DNA of 64,000 bases from a virus: IMG/VR virus record IMGVR_UViG_3300043177_000268, positions 59,478 through 123,477 of that record, one strand, 5' to 3'. Under the pieces are notes generated by a model. It saw nothing but the letters and a program-made list of their open reading frames with translations. It did not search any database and was not told the DNA's origin. A program made the translations under genes and the position numbers. How positions within the stretch are numbered: the first letter of the stretch is position 1; each line of letters opens with the position of its first letter. Of this stretch, positions 48,323-64,000 are shown piece by piece.

Positions 48323-49144
48323 CTAGTAATTCTGTATCAGAACCTCAGGCACAGGACCGCGCCTGGCACCATTTGTATTTATGCTTCTTTTTGCAAAAAC
48401 TATTGAAATATTGTATTCTCTGTACAGCTGTATGATTTCTTGTGAGTGCGAGTTTGAAACCAAAACCTTAGTGCGGCGTTCCGTAAGCACATCACAGAAC
48501 TCTTTCAGGGCACGATGATCTGATATATCAAATCCCCCAGCGTTATATTGCGTGAAGTTTGCAGTCTCGCTTATCGGCAAATAGGGGGGATCGATGTATA
48601 CCCAATCGTCCGCTTCGATTCTTGAGAGCAGCTCTGCGTAGCCAACATTCAGAATTTCACAGTTCTGGAGCGCTGCAGAGGCAGCGCGGATATTGTCAGC
48701 GTCAAAATCTACCCCGTCCCGCTTTCCAAAGGGAACATTGAAAAAGCCAGATGAATTAACTCTATAGAGTCCATTGAAACCCAGCTTGTTTAGATATATT
48801 GTTCTAGCTGCCTTCTGGCGCGCTGACCATTCAGCAAATTCCTCAGATTTCTCAATCTCTCTTATACGGTAGTATGATTCCGCATCCTGTCTTAGGTCTT
48901 GAAGTGCGGAGATTACTCCCTCCGGATCTTCCTTTACCTGGTGGTATGCGTTGACGAGCTCGGAATTGATATCGTTAATTATCGCGGGAGGAGGGCTTGC
49001 GCCTTCGGATAGGGCAAAGAATAGAGCTCCGCCACCAATCATTGGCTCAATATATCTGCTGAAAGAAACTGGGCGCCTAGAGAGGATTTCTTCTAGCAGC
49101 TGACTTTTTCCACCCGCCCACTTTAAAAAAGGTCTCGCCATCAC
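48323..49144 (-). CDS. dam: Dam-family N6-adenine DNA methyltransferase
   Basis: PFLKWAGGKSQL, EPMIGGGA, GFNGLYRVN, YIDPPY. Confidence 0.92.
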   Translation of the reverse strand: MMARPFLKWAGGKSQLLEEILSRRPVSFSRYIEPMIGGGALFFALSEGASPPPAIINDINSELVNAYHQVKEDPEGVISALQDLRQDAESYYRIREIEKSEEFAEWSARQKAARTIYLNKLGFNGLYRVNSSGFFNVPFGKRDGVDFDADNIRAASAALQNCEILNVGYAELLSRIEADDWVYIDPPYLPISETANFTQYNAGGFDISDHRALKEFCDVLTERRTKVLVSNSHSQEIIQLYREYNISIVFAKRSINTNGARRGPVPEVLIQNY

Positions 49145-50562
49145 AAATCCTCTATCTGATCCAAATCAGCATCACGGGCATATGTTTCAATTAACTGGCC
49201 CCTGAGGCTTCTCCACTCTTCTGGGGTAAGACCCTCTTTAATCTCACGGAGGAGCGATAGGCTGTCATCATCGCTATCGTCTGATGATAATTCTTCATCT
49301 GACAACTCAGAGTCGTCATCATCGATGTCGTCGCTGTTATCGAAAGCCTTTTTCTCTATGGAAATTCTACTCTTATACTCTTCTATAGTATCGGCCAATT
49401 CCTGCTCAAACGTCTCATCTGAGAAGTTTCTGCTTTCTATCGCCAATTCTTTTAAGTAAGCTGGGCTAAGTCCTATCACTCTAGTTGCAATATTGGCAAT
49501 TACCTCGCGTGGGACTGATGGATTGTACTGGCCAAAGTACATGCTGAGTATAGTTTCGTATTCATACTCCTGGGGATAGCCGAAGTACATCATCTTATCA
49601 AATCTTCCGGGCCGCAGCAGTGCTGGATCTAACTTACCCAGGCTATTGACTGTAGCAAAGATAATGACCTCGGGGTGAGATTGCTTGATATTTTCAAGCA
49701 TAAATAGAGCCACATCTACAGAGCTGTAGGCCCTATCGAAATCTTCGAAAACCAGTATTTGAGGCCGCAATTGGTTGATGAAGAACTCGAGTTCACCAGT
49801 CTCAAGCGTTCTAGCTATAGCCGGATCTATCTTGATAATACGGCTAAAGTGACGATAGGCTATTTGCAGAACTGACGTTGTCTTGCCTACCCCCGGCGGG
49901 CCGTGAAATAGGAAGGATCTAGAGATCCCTTCTTCCTGCGATCTTTTTAGACGCGCACAGAATTTCTCTAGGTCGTACTTGCCAATGTATTCTGGCTTCG
50001 AGGCCGGCAACGAGCGCAGCTCCAGTGTATGCGTTTGCCTGTTGCGCTTCAGATAGATACCGTACGGATACAGGTTCCACAATCTATCAAATAGCAGATC
50101 GAAGTTGAAGTTCTTCGTGTAGAAGAAGTCCATTCCTACGTCTTCGCGGCGGCTCTGTCTATACGCGTCTGTTGAGTTCTTGTATTGTACGATGTACATC
50201 GAGCTATCATCTGTTAATTTAAGCTCTATCAGCTCCTCATTTTCTGAGGAAAATACTATATCCTTCTCTACTGAGGCAAAGAGCTCTGATGTGAATATGA
50301 GGATTGGAAGATGGCCGAACCCGTGTTCTACATCTAGAGTGGAGATGTACGACTCCATCGGGGACAGTTGGGGGAGGTTGAATGATTCTGCCAGCGCATT
50401 TGCGACGCTTAGCCCAGCAGCTGTGATCGTTAGCGGATCACGCTGCTTCATCAAATGCATCGTTTCAAGAAGATGATAGGAGAATTTGGACAGATTCCTG
50501 ACTATGGGCTTGTTTAACTGGTTAACAACCTTGGTCAAGAATCGGCGTAGTTTCTTCTCCAC
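49141..50562 (-). CDS. AAA+ ATPase
   Basis: GPPGVGKT, VFEDFD, LDPALLRPGRFD; acidic C-terminus. Confidence 0.88.
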   Translation of the reverse strand: MEKKLRRFLTKVVNQLNKPIVRNLSKFSYHLLETMHLMKQRDPLTITAAGLSVANALAESFNLPQLSPMESYISTLDVEHGFGHLPILIFTSELFASVEKDIVFSSENEELIELKLTDDSSMYIVQYKNSTDAYRQSRREDVGMDFFYTKNFNFDLLFDRLWNLYPYGIYLKRNRQTHTLELRSLPASKPEYIGKYDLEKFCARLKRSQEEGISRSFLFHGPPGVGKTTSVLQIAYRHFSRIIKIDPAIARTLETGELEFFINQLRPQILVFEDFDRAYSSVDVALFMLENIKQSHPEVIIFATVNSLGKLDPALLRPGRFDKMMYFGYPQEYEYETILSMYFGQYNPSVPREVIANIATRVIGLSPAYLKELAIESRNFSDETFEQELADTIEEYKSRISIEKKAFDNSDDIDDDDSELSDEELSSDDSDDDSLSLLREIKEGLTPEEWRSLRGQLIETYARDADLDQIEDL

Positions 50563-52909: not shown

Positions 52910-53677
52910 TCAGCTAAAGTCAGGATCTGAATATGCATTTTCTGCAGCAGGACTAGCGAATATTACCCGACATTTGTCGCACATGTCCGGATCGTCTCGG
53001 TAGCATATTCCTATCCATTTGCCAGTAAGGACATTGTACATTTTTTGATACTTCTTAGAGGATCGGACGAGTTGTGGGTGTTCCTTGTGCTCTGCCTGAT
53101 TTAGCAGGAATTCCTCATTCCTGACGTTATTTCGTGTCTTGACCAGGACGTTTAGCGTAACACTCTCGCCACCTTGCGGATTCTGCGTTCGCTGTATAGA
53201 CGCGATGAGTGGGACGCGATCAAGCGTATCCGAGTCTGTCACGCTCCAGCGCTCAGGCAAGCACTCTTCGAATGCCGCCATAAGTGCCGCATCTAGCGAT
53301 GCCTCAGGGCCTGCCCACAGATTAGGAGGGCAGGCCCTGAATACCGCTGCGTGTGTTTCGTTAAATGCGGCCATTGACAGCACACCGTCCGCCACACTAC
53401 GTCCCGACACCTGCTCGAAGGACAGGTGCGGATGTAGACCGCGCGGCGTCGGCAGCAGCCGTACACAGCAAATATTTCTGTGTACGGCTCTATCACTTTC
53501 CTCCATTTGATACCAGGCCGTCAGCACCACTGGCACAGCATACTTGGTAAGAAAGTACTTCCTCGCTAACGCCGCAGATTGCGTTCTGGCAATAAGAAGC
53601 ATTTCTGCTGGTGAGAAGTCGGAGACGAGAGTGCGCTTTTCGGAAAAAATAAGTGGAGTCATTACAGCCCCTGTCAC
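52910..53677 (-). CDS. hypothetical protein downstream of ThiF/E1
   Basis: Coupled to the E1 gene by a 4-nt overlap; C-terminal C...CDKC. Confidence 0.55.
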   Translation of the reverse strand: MTGAVMTPLIFSEKRTLVSDFSPAEMLLIARTQSAALARKYFLTKYAVPVVLTAWYQMEESDRAVHRNICCVRLLPTPRGLHPHLSFEQVSGRSVADGVLSMAAFNETHAAVFRACPPNLWAGPEASLDAALMAAFEECLPERWSVTDSDTLDRVPLIASIQRTQNPQGGESVTLNVLVKTRNNVRNEEFLLNQAEHKEHPQLVRSSKKYQKMYNVLTGKWIGICYRDDPDMCDKCRVIFASPAAENAYSDPDFS

Positions 53678-54540
53678 TTAGGTAGACGCAGTGCGAGCCC
53701 CAGCTTGGACCACGATTCCAACGAGGACTTCGTCAGCGGCCTTTGCGAGAACTTATTTTTGATTGAAAATTCAACCATGTATGTGGATATGGGATTTCCG
53801 CTTAGCAGATCATACACGAAGTTGAGTGCAAAAGTGGCCGCATTAAGGTTGACGAATCCGAATTGATTTGAGGACTCTGCCATCTCAGCACAACTGAGTT
53901 CGCTAGCCAGCTTATCTGTCTTAGCTCGCTCGACTAGCTCGGGGAATACTTCGAACAGATGCGGGGTGCGATACACCCCGGTGCTGGGCTCCATTGCTGA
54001 TGTTATGCAGGTGAGGAGCACCTGGCCGGCCACATCTTCATTGCCACAGTCAATGATATAACCGCCATTTGGGTAATATAGCTGAAGGGCCTCGACCATA
54101 AACTTCCGGGCTTTGATATTGTCAACGCACGAAATGATGAGTGGCGTAGAATTACCATAGTTTATGTTGTTGACCTGCGCATTGCGGAGGGCTGTTTTGA
54201 TAGAGTTTGCGGATTCTAGATACTGCGGCAGGAATTGTATCTGCGTACCAAATGCAGTTGAATATCTCCTGGCCAGAGCCTCAGCCTTGTTTTTACCAAC
54301 ATCAGACTTGATAAAGTTCTGGCGTATAAGATTCTTTGGCTCTACCGTATCTGCATCTGCAAGTGTCAAACAGACTGGCTGCCTGCTGTTAAGCAGCAAA
54401 CGAACTAGATTTGGGATGACGTAACTGCCCGTGCCTCCGCAGCCTATAACTAGTACATTTTGTATATTTGTCAGCGGCTTGAGCGGATACAGGGGTTCGA
54501 TCGTGAGTGTTTTTGTCTGTGCCATGCTACATTGCCTCAC
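53674..54540 (-). CDS. ThiF/E1-like ubiquitin-activating enzyme (PRTRC ThiF-like)
   Basis: VIGCGGTGS, DADTVEPKNLIRQNF...DVGKNKA, SCVDN, DCGN, candidate catalytic Cys in LSCAEM. Confidence 0.92.
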   Translation of the reverse strand: MRQCSMAQTKTLTIEPLYPLKPLTNIQNVLVIGCGGTGSYVIPNLVRLLLNSRQPVCLTLADADTVEPKNLIRQNFIKSDVGKNKAEALARRYSTAFGTQIQFLPQYLESANSIKTALRNAQVNNINYGNSTPLIISCVDNIKARKFMVEALQLYYPNGGYIIDCGNEDVAGQVLLTCITSAMEPSTGVYRTPHLFEVFPELVERAKTDKLASELSCAEMAESSNQFGFVNLNAATFALNFVYDLLSGNPISTYMVEFSIKNKFSQRPLTKSSLESWSKLGLALRLPK

Positions 54541-55697
54541 TCATTCAGGAATGGGTCTGATGGAAGTTCGTCTGTCTCGGCAGCGTCTGCAACTTCTGGA
54601 AGGAGCGCCACTATCGTCTCTTCGTGGCCCGCCTCGAGAAGAGATCCAATCAGGTCGGCAACGTCATCATCAGTCATGGCGTCGACCAATTTGTCGAACA
54701 GTCTCTGCTTCTGTACTCTTGTCATTTCAACTCCTCCGATAGAAAGGCGCGCGGTGGTGCTTTTAATCAGATCAATCAGTAGTTCGTCATCATCAGCGTC
54801 TACGTCTGACGACGCTGCGCTCCGCTGAAAAAAGGGGTGGTCCGCCGCCGCACCTCCCATTCTCCTACGAGCATCGCTTATTGCGAATTCAAGCTCGGTT
54901 TCAATGTCCAGTTGTGTGGGGCGAGATCTGTGCGTCATCGCCGCACGTTCATTGCCCAGCGACGTACTTTCAGACGAAGAAGTGGTTCTGACAGGAGCTG
55001 TTGGATATTTAGTAATCCTGCTTTTCCAATCGCCAGGAAAGGCGACCTCCGGCTCCTCCTCAAAGATATCTTCGCGTTTAATAATCACCCGCTTGCCTCC
55101 ACACACAAAGGAGAAGAGCGTGGCAGGTGAGGACTGATTTAACTTACCGATAACACCAAAAAATCTGTCACTCTTCTCATCAGCATTGTCTGTTCCAGAG
55201 AAAAAAGCATCCATTGTGTTGTGGGAGTGAGTCTCTAGAACAAGGTGGCACCGCGCTTCAAGTTCCGTATCTCTCTCGAAATTGACTGAAGCGCCGCTAA
55301 CTCGTTGGGCCGGGACATGGTTGAAGTACCGCTTCTCAACGGGGTCCCAAAATGTTTGGACGTACGCCTCATCCTTGCTCTCGTCGCAGATGGATTTAAA
55401 AAAAGCAAGTATTTCTTTGAAGAGGGCTAGCGGTATCTTGCCGAAGTGGCTCCGGCCATACTCTACATTTTGCTCTTCAGGAAATCCAGGAAGTGGGTTT
55501 GCGAATTTCTCCCTCTGGATAACAAAAATGCCTGCCCTGGACTTCCGTAGTTCCCAGACGCCATCGCGTCTGACAATGTAGTTTACCGGCTTCTCTACAT
55601 TGGAAATGTCGGGCCAAGCCGCGTCCGTGAGGAATCCGGTATTCTGACGAGCCAGAAACGTTTTCAGATCTAGTTTAGGCTGAGATGATTCAGTCAT
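54537..55697 (-). CDS. JAB/MPN metalloprotease (PRTRC protein A-like)
   Basis: JAMM motif HSHNTMDAFFSGTD with an upstream Glu (DEAY); long acidic C-terminal extension. Confidence 0.88.
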   Translation of the reverse strand: MTESSQPKLDLKTFLARQNTGFLTDAAWPDISNVEKPVNYIVRRDGVWELRKSRAGIFVIQREKFANPLPGFPEEQNVEYGRSHFGKIPLALFKEILAFFKSICDESKDEAYVQTFWDPVEKRYFNHVPAQRVSGASVNFERDTELEARCHLVLETHSHNTMDAFFSGTDNADEKSDRFFGVIGKLNQSSPATLFSFVCGGKRVIIKREDIFEEEPEVAFPGDWKSRITKYPTAPVRTTSSSESTSLGNERAAMTHRSRPTQLDIETELEFAISDARRRMGGAAADHPFFQRSAASSDVDADDDELLIDLIKSTTARLSIGGVEMTRVQKQRLFDKLVDAMTDDDVADLIGSLLEAGHEETIVALLPEVADAAETDELPSDPFLNE

Positions 55698-55700
55698 TCG

Positions 55701-56420
55701 TCACTCTCCGTGCTTGAATATGGTTTTGATTGCTGTATCAAAATTCTTATATTCTCGACTGTGAGGAAGCAGCCACTCGGTGTCGAATGGGTGCTCAGTC
55801 AGATATTTGAGATAGCTCTGAGCTACTGACTCGTTATCTCTACTCACCTGCGCCCATGGGAACTTTGAGTTTAGGCACGAGGTCTGGAATAGGTCATCAT
55901 TGAATGGGGCCGTGAAGAATCTCCGCACCGCGCCATTTAGTGCAGCTAACGATTTAAAGTTCTTGATCGCCTCTTCGTTTTGCCCCCAGCAAATTCTAGC
56001 ATCTGGGAATACATTTGGTGTAGGGTAACTGTACAGCCCATCAATACCAAGCATAATGTTATTCTGCTTCATTGCAAAGATGTATGAATTGCTCACGAAA
56101 TAGTGATCATTCGCCTTTGTGAGGATGAAGAGGAATAGAGCCGGAGGCAGGTTGGCTTTGCCCACGGCGTCAGCGGCGCGACCGCGCGAAGAGAATGATA
56201 CATCATACGTGCTGGCTGGGCGCTCTACCGCTATGTGCGTCTGATCTCCTTTGACGCCAAGGTATCGCGTGCCGATGGGCAGGAATCCAATGTCAAATGC
56301 GACATTGGTGGACAGCACCTTGACTAGATCGGTCAGGTCTATTCCCTTGACCTGCTTGTTGCCAGTAGGATCTGTGTACGTGAGGGTCGTTCCCGATTCA
56401 ACAATATTTACGTCTAACAT
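55701..56420 (-). CDS. prokaryotic E2 family D protein (PRTRC protein B-like)
   Basis: LYSYPTPNVFPDARICWG with conserved Cys, followed by RFFTAPFNDDL. Confidence 0.8.
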   Translation of the reverse strand: MLDVNIVESGTTLTYTDPTGNKQVKGIDLTDLVKVLSTNVAFDIGFLPIGTRYLGVKGDQTHIAVERPASTYDVSFSSRGRAADAVGKANLPPALFLFILTKANDHYFVSNSYIFAMKQNNIMLGIDGLYSYPTPNVFPDARICWGQNEEAIKNFKSLAALNGAVRRFFTAPFNDDLFQTSCLNSKFPWAQVSRDNESVAQSYLKYLTEHPFDTEWLLPHSREYKNFDTAIKTIFKHGE

Positions 56421-56423
56421 TTT

Positions 56424-57287
56424 TCACCATCCAAAAAGTGTGTCTGTGGAGATTGTCATTTGCTGACGCTCGTCAGTTGCTATAACGGGACTAACATCGT
56501 ATGTCAGCTGATTTGGGGCATCCATTATTTCATTAATGGTCATTGTGCGGCGGCGGCGAATTTCTTCCAACCTTTCTCTAGCTATCCGCTGGGCTCTAGC
56601 GCTATCAGTCTCTTCAAGAGAGACGGCTGTAGGCTGATTCTTTACAACAGTTACCAGAATATTCGCCCTGCCAGCAATTACCTCGCGGCGCTGCTCTTCG
56701 GAAAGAGAAGAGTGTGCGAGAATCAGGGCGCGCATGACGAGAAGCTTGGCTGCCAGGATCTTGTTGAAATCTTCTTGCTCGCGCTCTAAATTGCAGAATG
56801 GCGCAGTCTTAAATGCCGGGATTAGAAATTCCAGAGCTGTGTTACCTGAGCGTCCATCTTCGTGTGTGAATGGTGATACGCCGCCGGCAAGCTCCATAGC
56901 AGTCGCGAGATCGGGTGATTGGCGAGAGAAATTGAGTGCTCCTACAATTGCCGCTGCAATGTTATAGTCTATGCCGTCCGCCACGAGCCTACCACCCAAC
57001 CCGCGAACCAAGATCTTAGGAGACCAGCTTACCGATAAGCCTGGCGTTTTTGCAATTTGCTTGTCAACAGCAAAGCGCAAATTCTCTATGAAGTGCTTTG
57101 AGTTGAAAGCTATGAAAGATTTCATGACTTCATTCACAGCCTCCGGCTTTGAGAAGTCCAGCGTTGAAATCTCGCTATATCTAGTTGACGTGGGGCGCCG
57201 AGATCTGCGCCCAAGCACGAGACTTTGCTCTACAACAAAGACGTGATTTAGAAGGGAGGCTGCAAGTTGCTCTCTGAGCTTTGACAT
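56424..57287 (-). CDS. hypothetical protein within the Ubl locus
   Basis: Long ORF between the Ubls and E2. Confidence 0.6.
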   Translation of the reverse strand: MSKLREQLAASLLNHVFVVEQSLVLGRRSRRPTSTRYSEISTLDFSKPEAVNEVMKSFIAFNSKHFIENLRFAVDKQIAKTPGLSVSWSPKILVRGLGGRLVADGIDYNIAAAIVGALNFSRQSPDLATAMELAGGVSPFTHEDGRSGNTALEFLIPAFKTAPFCNLEREQEDFNKILAAKLLVMRALILAHSSLSEEQRREVIAGRANILVTVVKNQPTAVSLEETDSARAQRIARERLEEIRRRRTMTINEIMDAPNQLTYDVSPVIATDERQQMTISTDTLFGW

Positions 57288-57293
57288 GTGACC

Positions 57294-57569
57294 TCAGATG
57301 AAGTCTGAGTTGAGACTTACAGTCTTCAACCTCAGGAAAACGCCTTTGCACTCTCGCGCGCTAAACCTCGCGCTAAGCATATCTTTGGCGGTACAGTTCT
57401 GGAATATCGTATCAATATCTTCCTGGGAGAGGGCTCTGCGAGCCTGAATTAGCTTCTCCAGCGAAGAGCATGAGAGTATGGCTGTGATGTTATCTGAATG
57501 GCGCTTAAATGTCTCGCCGAAGAACTTGTCGATGATTTGCTTTTGAATTTCAGGAATATTCATCTTCAT
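57294..57569 (-). CDS. hypothetical protein within the Ubl locus
   Basis: Start moved to MKMNIP because the track start lies inside the terminator hairpin. Confidence 0.55.
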   Translation of the reverse strand: MKMNIPEIQKQIIDKFFGETFKRHSDNITAILSCSSLEKLIQARRALSQEDIDTIFQNCTAKDMLSARFSARECKGVFLRLKTVSLNSDFI

Positions 57570-57572
57570 CCC

Positions 57573-57617
57573 AAAAATAACGGTGGGGACATCAGCGAGT
57601 GACATCCCCACCGTTAT
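57573..57617 (-). terminator. strong rho-independent terminator after the Ubl pair
   Basis: 18-bp stem (two G:U pairs on the minus-strand RNA) ATAACGGTGGGGATGTCA-CTCGC-TGATGTCCCCACCGTTAT followed by TTTT. Confidence 0.88.
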
Positions 57618-57632
57618 GGTGCGGCTTATAGC

Positions 57633-57818
57633 TCAACCCTTGGTTCCGGCCTTCTCGGAGAACTCCCAAGTGGTGGAGCCATCGGCATTTTGCACGCGAT
57701 TCACCTGCGCGTGCATGATGGCGGGCGCCTGCTCTGAAAGAGCAGCGCGGATTTCCCCTTCGGTGTGACCCGGAGGGAGGTGGTAAGTGACGCCCTGGAA
57801 AATAACGGTGTCCTGCAT
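57633..57818 (-). CDS. prokaryotic ubiquitin-like protein, copy B (PRTRC protein C-like)
   Basis: 61 aa ending WEFSEKAGTKG; AGGAG RBS. Confidence 0.82.
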   Translation of the reverse strand: MQDTVIFQGVTYHLPPGHTEGEIRAALSEQAPAIMHAQVNRVQNADGSTTWEFSEKAGTKG

Positions 57819-57951
57819 TGTATACTCCTACAGTGGTGTATATGTGTTTTACCCGCCTCAGCACCACAACAGAGTCGGATATTTGTGAAAATCAACCCTT
57901 GGTTCCGGCCTTCTCGGAGAACTCCCAAGTGGTGGAGCCATCGGCATTTTG
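57633..57951. repeat. 60-nt exact direct repeat (57633-57692 = 57892-57951)
   Basis: Base-by-base comparison of the 3' ends of the two Ubl genes. Confidence 0.95.
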
Positions 57952-58074
57952 AAACTTATTTAGAGTTGCATGCAGAATAGCGGGGGCTTGTTCTGAGAGG
58001 GCTGCGCGAATCTCGCCTTCCGTGTGACCGGCGGGAAGATTATACGTAACCCCTTGAAATAGTACTGTATCCAT
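57892..58074 (-). CDS. prokaryotic ubiquitin-like protein, copy A
   Basis: 60 aa from ATG 58074 with the same C-terminus, WEFSEKAGTKG. Confidence 0.82.
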   Translation of the reverse strand: MDTVLFQGVTYNLPAGHTEGEIRAALSEQAPAILHATLNKFQNADGSTTWEFSEKAGTKG

Positions 58075-58079
58075 GTGCT

Positions 58080-58301
58080 TCAATCCTTGTCTTTAAGTTG
58101 TTTCCTGGAGCGCTTGAGGACAACAATGTCCAGCTCCTCGGGGTCACCATCTTCGACGGGAACCTCCACTACCGAGACACGCTTCTTGCTGACGCGCGCC
58201 TTCTCGCCCGAGAAAAGGGTGCCGAGCTTTCTTGAAGCTAGAACACCTACGGCTGCGCCACCGGCAGCAGCTACACCAAGTAATTTCAATAATCCGGTCA
58301 T
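58080..58301 (-). CDS. small membrane-anchored protein
   Basis: LLKLLGVAAAGGAAVGVLA; AGGAG RBS. Confidence 0.6.
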   Translation of the reverse strand: MTGLLKLLGVAAAGGAAVGVLASRKLGTLFSGEKARVSKKRVSVVEVPVEDGDPEELDIVVLKRSRKQLKDKD

Positions 58302-58967: not shown

Positions 58968-59183
58968 TTACTCTGACTTGTTTTCAATGTTGAGCGCCTG
59001 CTCAACCTTCTTCAGTCGAGCATCCAGCGAATTTACTGCATTGACAGTCTTTCCGACAAATTTAATCAGAAGCTGCACGCCAGCATTTTTAGCCGCAAAG
59101 CCCGGCAGGTGGTCCTTAATCATAGCCTTGACTTCTTCCATATCAATCAACATATCTACTCCGACTTTAGGGTTCAAGTGCAA
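58968..59183 (-). CDS. hypothetical protein
   Basis: Co-oriented ORF with a C-terminal coiled coil. Confidence 0.5.
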   Translation of the reverse strand: MHLNPKVGVDMLIDMEEVKAMIKDHLPGFAAKNAGVQLLIKFVGKTVNAVNSLDARLKKVEQALNIENKSE

Positions 59184-59532
59184 TTTGTGTTTTGCAAGAT
59201 GGGCACTTGTCTATCTTGCCATTGAGATCGAAGAATTTCTGCGAACACTTTACGCATGTGTGCTTGTGTCCGTACCTGGTCGGCGGGCCGCAGATCGCAG
59301 ACTTGGCAGATGTATGATCTGCCGGCGTTGGCAGGCGCACCTTATCGCTCAGTTCTCCGGCTGTGGCCAGATAGCATAAGATCTGTAGTGCTGCCACTGT
59401 GCCGTCCTCGACCTCTAACTGCTCCATCCTGTAAAGGAGGGGGCGGGAGTAGCGCGAGTCTGAAATCACAGCGACGACTTTTTCGTCGTGGAAAAGGAAC
59501 CTTCCATCAACCAAAGAAAATTTAGACTGCAT
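59167..59532 (-). CDS. protein with FYDLN-type (TIGR02300-like) zinc ribbon
   Basis: YGHKHTCVKCSQKFFDLNGKIDKCPSC. Confidence 0.7.
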   Translation of the reverse strand: MQSKFSLVDGRFLFHDEKVVAVISDSRYSRPLLYRMEQLEVEDGTVAALQILCYLATAGELSDKVRLPTPADHTSAKSAICGPPTRYGHKHTCVKCSQKFFDLNGKIDKCPSCKTQIALEP

Positions 59533-62738: not shown

Positions 62739-64000
62739 TCAACCGAACACCCTCTTGCCGGCAACTACTATGGCTACCAAGACAAATAGTGCTGCAGCCC
62801 ACATTAGCGAGTATCCTGCACCGCCTGATGATGCCTCCTGTACAGCCGCACCTACATTGAGGATGCCGGCTCCGTATTTGAATTCATCTCCAGCATCAGT
62901 GGCAGTAGAAGTCATAAGCTTCATAACTTCCGCGCGATCCACACCTGGACCAAGAATTGAAACCAGTAGTGCTGCTGAGCCTGCAGCCATAGGCGTCGCC
63001 ATCGAAGTTCCTTGATAAGGAAACATCCCCCACTCAGATGGATTTTCTGGATTGACCGTAGACTGCCACACTCCGCCCTCTGGGCCAAAATCTCGCATAT
63101 TACCGCCGGGTGCTGCAAGGAAAACTCCTCGTTCGTCGTCAGGGTCTCTACCGTGTGAAGAATACGGCGCTAGTTTGCCATCGGGCCCAACTGAGGATAT
63201 GGCTAGGCAGCCCTCCATGCCTGCTGGGTATTCGATAACTCCCCTACCTGCATTACCTGCGGCGCAAAACACCAGAACATTTTTCTCAACGGCATATGTC
63301 AATGCATCCTGCATGACTTGACTAAAGCCACCTCCGCCCAGAGACATGTTGATTACATGCGCTCCATTATCTGCAGCAAATCTAATGCCTTCGGCAATAT
63401 CTGCAGTATCGCCCCAACCCTGATCAGACAGCACTTTAACTGGCATGATGCATGCGTTGAACGCAATCCCTACGCCGCCAAGGGTGTTGTTTGTGCTCTC
63501 TGCGATTGTTGAAGCTACGTGGGTGCCGTGACTCTGGATATCATATGGGTCTGTGGTGTCTGCCGCGAAGTCATAGCCGGCAACGAAACAGGTGTCCTTT
63601 AGATCTGGTATCTGGGGGTATTTGCTATCCGGCCCGGATACGCCAGTGTCCAAGACAGCGACTACTGCGCCTGTGCCAGTAGTCTTTCGCCATGCAAGGG
63701 GCAGTCCAATCATATCGAAATGCCACGCTTGCTTTGCGAGAAATGGATCATTAGGCACATCAAAATCGGCGCCGTCGGAAAGGGCGCGATAGACTTGTGA
63801 AACTTCAACACTCTGAATGTCGGAATCTCCCCTAATTTCCTCTATAATTTCTGCCACTTTTGAAGAATCAACCACGGCGGTGGTGATCTTCGTTGATGGG
63901 AACATAAGCGAGTTAGGGAGTAGATCTGTGTCAATCTCCTCCTCTGTCTCTGCGATATCGACTCTGGTGGCGTCATCTTTGAAGTCTACAATGAGCTTGA
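62739..64000 (-). CDS. S8 subtilisin-family serine protease with C-terminal TM helix (5' end beyond the window)
   Basis: Triad VLDTG, HGTHVA, GTSMATP. The frame stays open to the window edge (KLIVDFKDD... propeptide). C-terminal LMWAAALFVLVAIVVA. Confidence 0.93.
   Translation of the reverse strand, partial: KLIVDFKDDATRVDIAETEEEIDTDLLPNSLMFPSTKITTAVVDSSKVAEIIEEIRGDSDIQSVEVSQVYRALSDGADFDVPNDPFLAKQAWHFDMIGLPLAWRKTTGTGAVVAVLDTGVSGPDSKYPQIPDLKDTCFVAGYDFAADTTDPYDIQSHGTHVASTIAESTNNTLGGVGIAFNACIMPVKVLSDQGWGDTADIAEGIRFAADNGAHVINMSLGGGGFSQVMQDALTYAVEKNVLVFCAAGNAGRGVIEYPAGMEGCLAISSVGPDGKLAPYSSHGRDPDDERGVFLAAPGGNMRDFGPEGGVWQSTVNPENPSEWGMFPYQGTSMATPMAAGSAALLVSILGPGVDRAEVMKLMTSTATDAGDEFKYGAGILNVGAAVQEASSGGAGYSLMWAAALFVLVAIVVAGKRVFG

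Follow-up and report, generated by a model that had tools for sequence, protein, structure and literature searches.

Does a virus carry a complete ubiquitin-like conjugation pathway of its own, and to which of the known bacterial systems is such a pathway related? The question is raised by a 64,000-nucleotide stretch of the IMG/VR record IMGVR_UViG_3300043177_000268 (positions 59,478 to 123,477 of that record; hereafter the window), in which genes for a ThiF-type E1, a JAB/JAMM metallopeptidase, an E2-like protein and two small ubiquitin-like proteins (Ubl-a and Ubl-b) lie together. Based on the analyses below, we read the locus as a probable working Ubl-conjugation operon of the ParB-Related, ThiF-Related Cassette (PRTRC) lineage, located among the genes for replication and nucleotide metabolism of a huge phage of lytic type. 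We put the probability of this reading at about 0.72.

A first-pass annotation, made from the sequence without database searches, had placed co-oriented E1, JAB, E2 and two Ubl genes at 53674-58074, and all five were recovered there on the minus strand. The motifs that it quoted for the three enzymes and the GTKG ends of the Ubls are real, and the catalytic motifs are invariant in seven orthologous loci, including the window, that were used for the motif alignments. In searches with hidden Markov models (HMMs), ThiF, Prok-JAB and Prok-E2_D score above their gathering thresholds; Prok_Ub and PRTRC_C match the Ubls only weakly. Three elements of the locus were absent from the earlier component list: an ~89-aa gene, a 287-aa gene and a hairpin that resembles an intrinsic terminator.

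The E1 has 288 residues when read from a GTG; the ATG at 54525 is probably the start that is conserved. The protein scores 64 bits against ThiF, above the gathering cut-off, and 125 bits against PRTRC_ThiF (TIGR03736; cut-off 144.75). Residues invariant in the seven loci are G33-x-G-G-x-G38 (GCGGTG), D62, K69-N-L-x-R73-Q, K85, D140 and C217, the Cys of LSCAE, which is probably the thioester site. The E2 (239 aa) scores 34.7 bits against Prok-E2_D (PF14460; cut-off 25) and 20.7 bits against PRTRC_B (cut-off 131.45). P133-x-P135-N136 and C144-W-G are invariant in its seven orthologues (PxPN-x7-C-W-G), with an Asn-to-Cys spacing of 8. The HPN...C layout of eukaryotic E2s has the same spacing.

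The JAB protein (386 aa) scores 28 bits against Prok-JAB (cut-off 25) and 53.5 bits against PRTRC_A (cut-off 101.8). Its invariant residues are E110, H157-S-H159, S167 and D170 (E...HSH-x7-S-xx-D), an arrangement that fits the JAMM motif E-x(n)-H-[ST]-H-x7-S-x2-D as given in PMC300881. Beyond the motif, a poorly conserved and probably disordered linker leads into a conserved C-terminal region. A sequence search of the PDB with the E2 and JAB profiles returned no relatives, and neither the E2 sequence nor its alignment gave a match when IMG/VR was scanned for patterns.

Ubl-a has 60 residues from the ATG at 58074 (a TTG at 58083 is a possible upstream start) and Ubl-b has 61. Both end in EKAGTKG followed directly by the stop codon, and A-G-x-K-G at the very end is invariant in the alignment of Ubl orthologues. 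PRTRC_C scores 20.6 bits for Ubl-b and 13.1 bits for Ubl-a, against an NCBIfam cut-off of 45.95, and the Pfam model Prok_Ub matches Ubl-b weakly. An AlphaFold2 model built from nine sequences (predicted local distance difference test score, pLDDT, 86) has a beta-beta-alpha-alpha-beta-beta topology with a tail that is disordered from residue 55. Foldseek comparison of this model with the PDB returned mostly MoaD and ubiquitin (TM-score by query 0.55-0.61, probability up to 0.97). Based on this model, a beta-grasp fold is likely, although not proven.

The first-pass annotation had argued that, as the Ubls already end in Gly, the JAB protein is probably a deconjugase. This is supported for the clade of the window: the Ubl is already mature and the JAB active site is nevertheless retained, which suggests deconjugation, and a deconjugase is thus more likely than a maturase. 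The Ubl of one distant relative (locus L009, positions 2-133) ends in GTKGC, one residue beyond the Gly, so that trimming by JAB may still be needed in part of the clade.

The DNA of the two Ubl genes is identical over the last 19 codons and the stop, whereas the first 41 codons are 65% identical and carry 25 synonymous differences. Identical 3' codons beside a diverged 5' part point to gene conversion, which would have acted on the portion of the Ubl that the enzymes must recognize. The duplication itself is old, since locus L006 contains orthologues, by N-terminal sequence, of both copy a and copy b; a single copy is shown in L005 and L008.

The last Ubl gene is followed immediately by a G+C-rich stem of 13 bp and then UUUUU (RNAfold, -32.1 kcal/mol for the 73-nt spacer). 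This hairpin was missed by a consensus scan because its loop is longer than 8 nt. All seven loci have a strong hairpin with a U-tract at this position, and its sequence differs in the six other loci. The open reading frame (ORF) of the next gene, encoding the ~89-aa protein, is open up to a GTG at 57611; the hairpin and the orthologues favor the ATG at 57563 as its start. From the position of the terminator we infer that transcripts of the modifier outnumber those of the enzymes.

A search of 5.8 billion protein clusters brings up about 20 E2 relatives outside the window, each of them metagenomic and some on contigs of 229-259 kb. The six loci that were fetched share one gene order: one or two Ubls, a protein of ~90 aa, a protein of ~285 aa, E2, JAB, ThiF, a protein of ~250 aa, dUTPase and helicase. 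Identity of the E1 among the seven loci is 43-77%, and the E1s of two of the six fetched loci are only 43-45% identical to the window E1. Synonymous sites are saturated (proportion of synonymous differences, pS, 0.65-1.0). Nonsynonymous divergence (dN) is 0.13-0.32 for E1 and E2, 0.14-0.51 for Ubl-b and 0.15-0.32 for the dUTPase; it is 0.2-0.8 for the three proteins without family assignment (hereafter orphans), including 0.20-0.63 for the 89-aa protein. Set against the saturated synonymous sites, these values show that all of the genes are constrained. The rate of evolution is two to three times higher for the orphans than for the enzymes.

Table 1 Genes and other features of the Ubl locus, by position in the window
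Feature	Position	Strand	Support and remarks
~250-aa protein gene	52910-53677	minus	abuts E1; C-terminal CxxC; alignment A8; no family match
ThiF-type E1	53674-54540	minus	Pfam ThiF 1.3e-17, PRTRC_ThiF 2.9e-36; alignment A4
JAB/JAMM metallopeptidase	54537-55697	minus	Prok-JAB 2.1e-6, PRTRC_A 2.2e-14; alignment A6
E2-like protein	55701-56420	minus	Prok-E2_D 1.9e-8, PRTRC_B 2e-4; alignment A5
287-aa orphan	56424-57287	minus	conserved; no known family or fold
~89-aa orphan	57294-57563	minus	alignment A7 of 7 orthologues; no known family
Intrinsic-terminator-like hairpin	57573-57617	minus	RNAfold; directly after Ubl-b
Ubl-b	57633-57818	minus	PRTRC_C 3.7e-4, Prok_Ub 0.057; AlphaFold2 model
Ubl-a	57892-58074	minus	PRTRC_C 0.079; aligns with 8 orthologues
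73-aa protein	58080-58301	minus	hydrophobic, Gly/Ala-rich N-terminus; directly upstream of Ubl-a

The nearest known relative of this gene set is the PRTRC, which is described by NCBIfam families TIGR03734-03742 and takes its name from a ParB partner. For the window's E1, JAB, E2 and Ubl alike, a PRTRC family is the best-scoring or only NCBIfam match. The first-pass annotation had seen no PRTRC ParB in the window. None was found (TIGR03734 or ParB_N) in the whole 142-kb record, about 38% of the genome, nor in the gene tables of the syntenic loci. PRTRC D, E and F gave no NCBIfam match for the 287-, 89- and 255-aa proteins at E <=0.1 (<=10 for the 287-aa family). A best family with scores under its cut-offs, together with the lack of ParB, indicates a divergent PRTRC-like branch and not an ordinary cassette. 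The match to PRTRC claimed earlier thus holds for the lineage of each enzyme, and fails for the canonical cassette. Based on sequence, we describe the locus as a real, intact, ParB-less branch of the PRTRC lineage, and refer to it as 'PRTRC-like' rather than as a 'PRTRC member'.

Comparison with an annotated phage cassette illustrates both the likeness and the distance. In Ralstonia phage Dina (NC_055026), the RefSeq PRTRC order is E, C, F, B, A, ThiF; the succession of Ubl, large protein, E2, JAB and ThiF is the same as in the window. The PRTRC_C domain of Dina ends in VGRKG and continues for ~60 residues, whereas the window Ubl is mature and has no tail. Unlike PRTRC, the window locus has a duplicated Ubl gene with its own terminator, and its carrier is a huge lytic-type phage and not a plasmid, integrative and conjugative element or temperate phage. 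RefSeq also annotates PRTRC_A in Acinetobacter phage ME3, and a 2026 paper (PMC13366799) describes a PRTRC cassette in Burkholderia phages, stating that it is unrecorded in phages outside NCBI records and that its function is unstudied. Phage carriage of PRTRC is therefore already on record. Our literature searches turned up no publication that reports such a cassette from a lytic or jumbo phage.

Homologues of E1, JAB and/or E2 were found by tblastn in deposited phages, namely in the Bacillus jumbo phages vB_BceM_WH1, Edson and KLEB27-3, the Vibrio phages D69, D181 and D148, Salmonella phage Arash, Acinetobacter phage ME3 and the temperate phages Dina (Ralstonia) and BgVeeders33 (Burkholderia). 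Identity to the window proteins is 36-39% for E1, 26-32% for JAB and 24-25% for the E2 of the Bacillus phages. The E2s of Arash and D69 have no tblastn match at 1e-3 and were recognized by motif and position; the E2s of the cultured phages share P-x-[PS]-N...C-x-G and a PFNxDL motif with that of the window. Arash (gp246c-gp250c), D69 (VPHD69_0301-0307) and WH1, Edson and KLEB27-3 (gp211-gp216) have the six-gene layout of the window: a Ubl ending in GTKG, two orphans, E2, JAB and E1.

The main difference among these lineages lies in the form of the Ubl, which is encoded as five or three tandem repeats in the Bacillus and Vibrio phages and as separate mature genes in the window. In WH1, gp211 (LC597490; locus L015, 829-1728), whose gene precedes the rest of the cassette, comprises five head-to-tail Ubl repeats, each ending in QAGTKG, and a short C-terminal tail, the make-up of a polyubiquitin-like precursor. 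PRTRC_C matches this protein at 1e-20 in five stretches, and the record labels it 'virion structural protein'. With gp211 as query, tblastn found WH1, Edson and KLEB27-3 only; with the 61-aa window Ubl it found no deposited phage, the query probably being too short. In D69, VPHD69_0307 (OZ195729; locus L019, 6295-7086) has three repeats ending in TGTKG, separated by linkers, one of which is long and acidic. The annotated E1 of D69 (0301, 251 aa; L019 2529-3500) lacks the N-terminal GxGxxG part and tblastn matches continue upstream, so the gene may be split or mis-annotated.

In Arash (OQ632216), an unannotated 66-aa ORF ending in RRTGTKG (locus L018, 7014-7214, minus strand) is followed downstream by genes for a 320-aa protein, a small protein, the E2 (gp248c), the JAB (gp247c) and the E1 (gp246c), and is likely the Ubl of the cassette. 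On the same stretch, the record instead annotates a 72-aa gp251c in another frame. Ubl ends are thus QAGTKG in Bacillus phage WH1, TGTKG in Vibrio phage D69 and Salmonella phage Arash and VGRKG in Ralstonia phage Dina, and judged from these sequences G-x-K-G is a trait of the family. A poly-Ubl or a tailed Ubl requires an endopeptidase that cuts after GTKG, or that exposes G-x-K-G, and this fits JAB. As far as we have searched, the GTKG group of lytic phages, its poly-Ubl genes and its cultured models are undescribed.

The two orphans between Ubl and E2 have a different evolutionary pattern. Every lineage has one larger and one small orphan at this position, and their sequences are unrelated between lineages, as would be expected for specificity factors or substrates. 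The 89-aa protein has no match in Pfam, NCBIfam, PHROG or PADLOC. A search of 1.84 billion proteins yields just 17 representatives of the 287-aa family, and those members whose loci were read, orthologues as well as the distant P0034 and P0031, adjoin E2, JAB and E1. Although the AlphaFold2 model of the 287-aa protein has a pLDDT of 91, no fold could be assigned in searches of the PDB (Foldseek), AlphaFold Database clusters, VIA wide and the ESM Atlas, where the matches are generic helical-bundle or weak chaperone-like ones (Z <=8, TM <0.4). The protein has no invariant Cys or Lys. Its gene fills the slot that PRTRC_F holds in canonical cassettes, but hhalign of the 287-aa family with Dina PRTRC_F gives a probability of 0.1%, that is, no similarity. 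Neither the 287-aa nor the 89-aa family shows similarity by hhalign to its positional counterparts in Arash, D69 and WH1. The two proteins might be lineage-specific adaptors or first substrates.

For the third orphan, of 255 aa, Pfam, NCBIfam, PHROG and PADLOC gave no match, the ESM Atlas returned nothing usable and BLASTP against Dina gp01 found nothing. The gene has no counterpart after E1 in Arash or D69, and a NADAR gene occupies that place in WH1. Its membership of the module is uncertain.

All of the module genes are co-oriented and tightly packed, and the ~250-aa gene is followed by a dUTPase and a DinG-like helicase. Nearly all ORFs of >=150 aa in the window are on one strand, and PHROG matches include DNA polymerase, SbcC, GroEL, dUTPase and helicase. 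The 142-kb record has a CheckV completeness of 38%, and an identical E2 protein occurs on a contig of 367,953 bp. The part of the record outside the window encodes a prohead-protease-like domain and a large terminase (phrog_675, 2.7e-54) that bears an intein. A freshwater DNA metagenome is the only sequencing run that contains the stretch, which occurs in no RNA run, and INPHARED has no blastn match to the module. The intein-bearing terminase, the IMG/VR record and the presence of the same E2 on the 368-kb contig support a viral record, from a huge phage of ~370 kb in fresh water. The claim that here the virus carries the machinery thus stands as regards the setting; as regards specialness it is overstated, given the cassettes of Dina, ME3, the Burkholderia phages and Arash, D69 and WH1.

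Several neighboring features deserve mention in their own right. The terminase gene (G000:C1:41770-44682; locus L013, 1770-4682; minus strand) encodes 970 aa, of which residues ~185-547 form an insert that matches LAGLIDADG homing endonucleases and inteins of phage DNA polymerases; the extein shares only 24-27% identity with its closest counterparts among deposited phage terminases. At the position of the 73-aa gene, L002, L005, L006 and L008 have an ORF of 70-76 aa. In all relatives, synteny with the Ubl module extends to an upstream subtilisin-like S8 peptidase (62739-63905) and a downstream single-domain AAA ATPase (49141-50562), both on the minus strand. A 121-aa protein (59167-59532, minus strand), whose gene is conserved in relatives at a distance of ~1.1 kb upstream from the Ubl genes, was considered as a RING E3 and rejected: it has only a four-Cys C-terminal zinc ribbon, which scores 29.6 bits with FYDLN_acid, above the cut-off, and a sub-threshold 18.9 bits with RING-finger (cut-off 27).

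From these observations a mechanism can be proposed. The Ubl gene or genes would form their own highly expressed unit, closed by the intrinsic terminator, so that the modifier is far more abundant than the enzymes. The Ubl would be made mature, ending in Gly61. The ThiF-type E1 would adenylate this Gly with ATP and take the Ubl as a thioester, probably on Cys217, from where it would pass to Cys144 of the E2, aided by the HPN-like P-x-P-N136. The E2 would then transfer it to a lysine of a target protein, and JAB would remove or edit the tag; in relatives with a polyprotein or tailed Ubl, JAB would also excise the mature Ubl. The 287-aa and ~89-aa proteins, at the PRTRC F and E positions, would act in the adaptor or substrate roles suggested above. 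All of the chemical steps are inferred, as are the part played by Cys217, the function of the two proteins as adaptors and the target. A hint of a possible DNA-associated target comes from the location among replication genes and from the usual ParB partner of PRTRC.

A number of results weigh against a working, PRTRC-derived viral pathway. All NCBIfam PRTRC matches of the window proteins are below the curated cut-offs, and the literature searched holds no biochemical data on any PRTRC-type system. The assignment of Cys217 is drawn from its conservation. Prediction of an E1-Ubl complex scored 0.28, under the 0.32 mark, which gives no verdict and was used neither way. The AlphaFold check suggested in the first-pass annotation yielded the expected topology, but the fold-match E-values are all >0.04 (usual for a 61-residue query), and the HMM matches of the Ubls are weak. 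Similarly, of the viral hallmarks proposed as a check, the large terminase was found and capsid and portal were not in a Pfam search of the 142-kb record, which is 38% complete. We identified no E3, target or Ubl reader. On the supporting side, Gp246-249 were detected in preparations of Arash by liquid chromatography-tandem mass spectrometry among 116/272 proteins, many of them enzymes (PMC10585845). With so many proteins detected, these data show expression of the E1, E2 and JAB homologues and not their location in the virion.

One alternative is a sulfur relay. In such a system the Ubl adenylated by the E1 would be thiocarboxylated and would donate sulfur to a thiolated nucleoside or cofactor, and JAB, like Mec+/QbsD, would release the carrier. 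A ThiF/MoeB-type E1 and a small beta-grasp-like protein that ends in Gly and has MoaD as its best solved match speak for this explanation. The matches of the E1 to ThiF and MoeB models are weak, however, at 17-53 bits, far under the NCBIfam cut-offs of 150-450, compared with 125 bits for PRTRC_ThiF, and Pfam and NCBIfam searches found no rhodanese domain in it. Further, the Ubl ends in K-G and not G-G, the conserved neighborhood contains no thiamine, molybdopterin or thiouridine synthase gene, and every locus conserves an E2, with its invariant Cys and HPN-like motif, for which a sulfur relay has no use. We consider a sulfur carrier unlikely.

We attach similarly low credence to a counter-defense function, in which the module would undo or swamp Ubl-based immunity of the host (tail tagging by Bil, or Cap2/Cap3 control of the cyclic-oligonucleotide-based anti-phage signaling system, CBASS), with JAB as the effector and the Ubl as a decoy. 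Two reports (10.1101/2023.09.04.556158 and PMC10557695) do describe bacterial E1-E2-Ubl-JAB systems as anti-phage, and the JAB active site is intact here even though the Ubl is made mature. For this purpose a phage would need only a deconjugase, yet E1, E2 and Ubl are equally strongly constrained. That phages infecting Gram-positive and Gram-negative bacteria alike retain GTKG is easier to reconcile with an internal pair of enzyme and substrate than with mimicry of diverse host Ubls. The only PADLOC matches are generic ones of the E1 Rossmann region (residues ~27-110), which resembles the CBASS E1-E2 models. The 2023 PADLOC release has no match for Ubl, E2 or JAB, and the libraries used contain no identifiable Bil/Bub profile. 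These searches give no support for kinship with Bil/Bub. The roles that the first-pass annotation raised, namely tagging of host or phage proteins or jamming of host Ubl-based immunity, are speculative. A third idea, plasmid-like maintenance by a 'ThiF-partitioning cassette', is very improbable: PMC13366799 so reads the ParB-linked cassette of the temperate Burkholderia phage AB2, and PRTRC owes its name to ParB, but this is itself only a proposal, ParB and PRTRC_parB matches are lacking in the 142-kb record and the syntenic loci, and Arash, for which no lysogeny genes are reported, is a large phage, as are D69 and WH1.

The PRTRC-like module can also be compared with the other known systems. 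Bil (BilABCD)/Bub and CBASS Cap2/Cap3 also combine Ubl, E1, E2 and a JAB-type or other deubiquitinase, and the same thioester chemistry is expected. They are bacterial defense genes, whereas the window module is encoded by a phage, and its E2 and JAB are unrelated in sequence to any solved structure. In contrast to CBASS, the window E1 and E2 are separate genes with no fusion, and no CD-NTase is in the neighborhood. A phage Ubl with a C-terminal Gly and a paired JAB peptidase has a precedent in TAPI and the JAB-NlpC protein TAPK of lambda and T1. Those proteins have neither E1 nor E2 and belong to the tail module, unlike the full conjugation set among replication genes. Iyer, Burroughs and Aravind (2006; PMC1779556), who discussed lambda TAPI/TAPK, also predicted bacterial E1/E2/JAB/Ubl operons on mobile elements and a triple-Ubl protein.

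A broader proposal can be made tentatively, and we regard it in its joint form as doubtful. Large lytic phages of Gram-negative and Gram-positive hosts may share a dedicated viral Ubl system that consists of a tandem or polyubiquitin-style Ubl, E1, E2, JAB and fast-evolving adaptors that are neither RING nor HECT proteins (the 287- and 89-aa proteins), and that steers pro-viral tagging of host or phage proteins. Mobile elements commonly carry cassettes of the PRTRC type, whose prediction dates from 2006, and the literature searched contains no tested case. As the same architecture is present in the cultured lytic phages Arash, D69, WH1 and Edson, targets and phenotype could be found by routine phage genetics and proteomics. 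A complete, conserved set on the phage side would show a virus using chemistry that is known from bacterial anti-phage Ubl conjugation and, if the proposal is true, would represent a pathway of pro-viral takeover during infection rather than a defense system.

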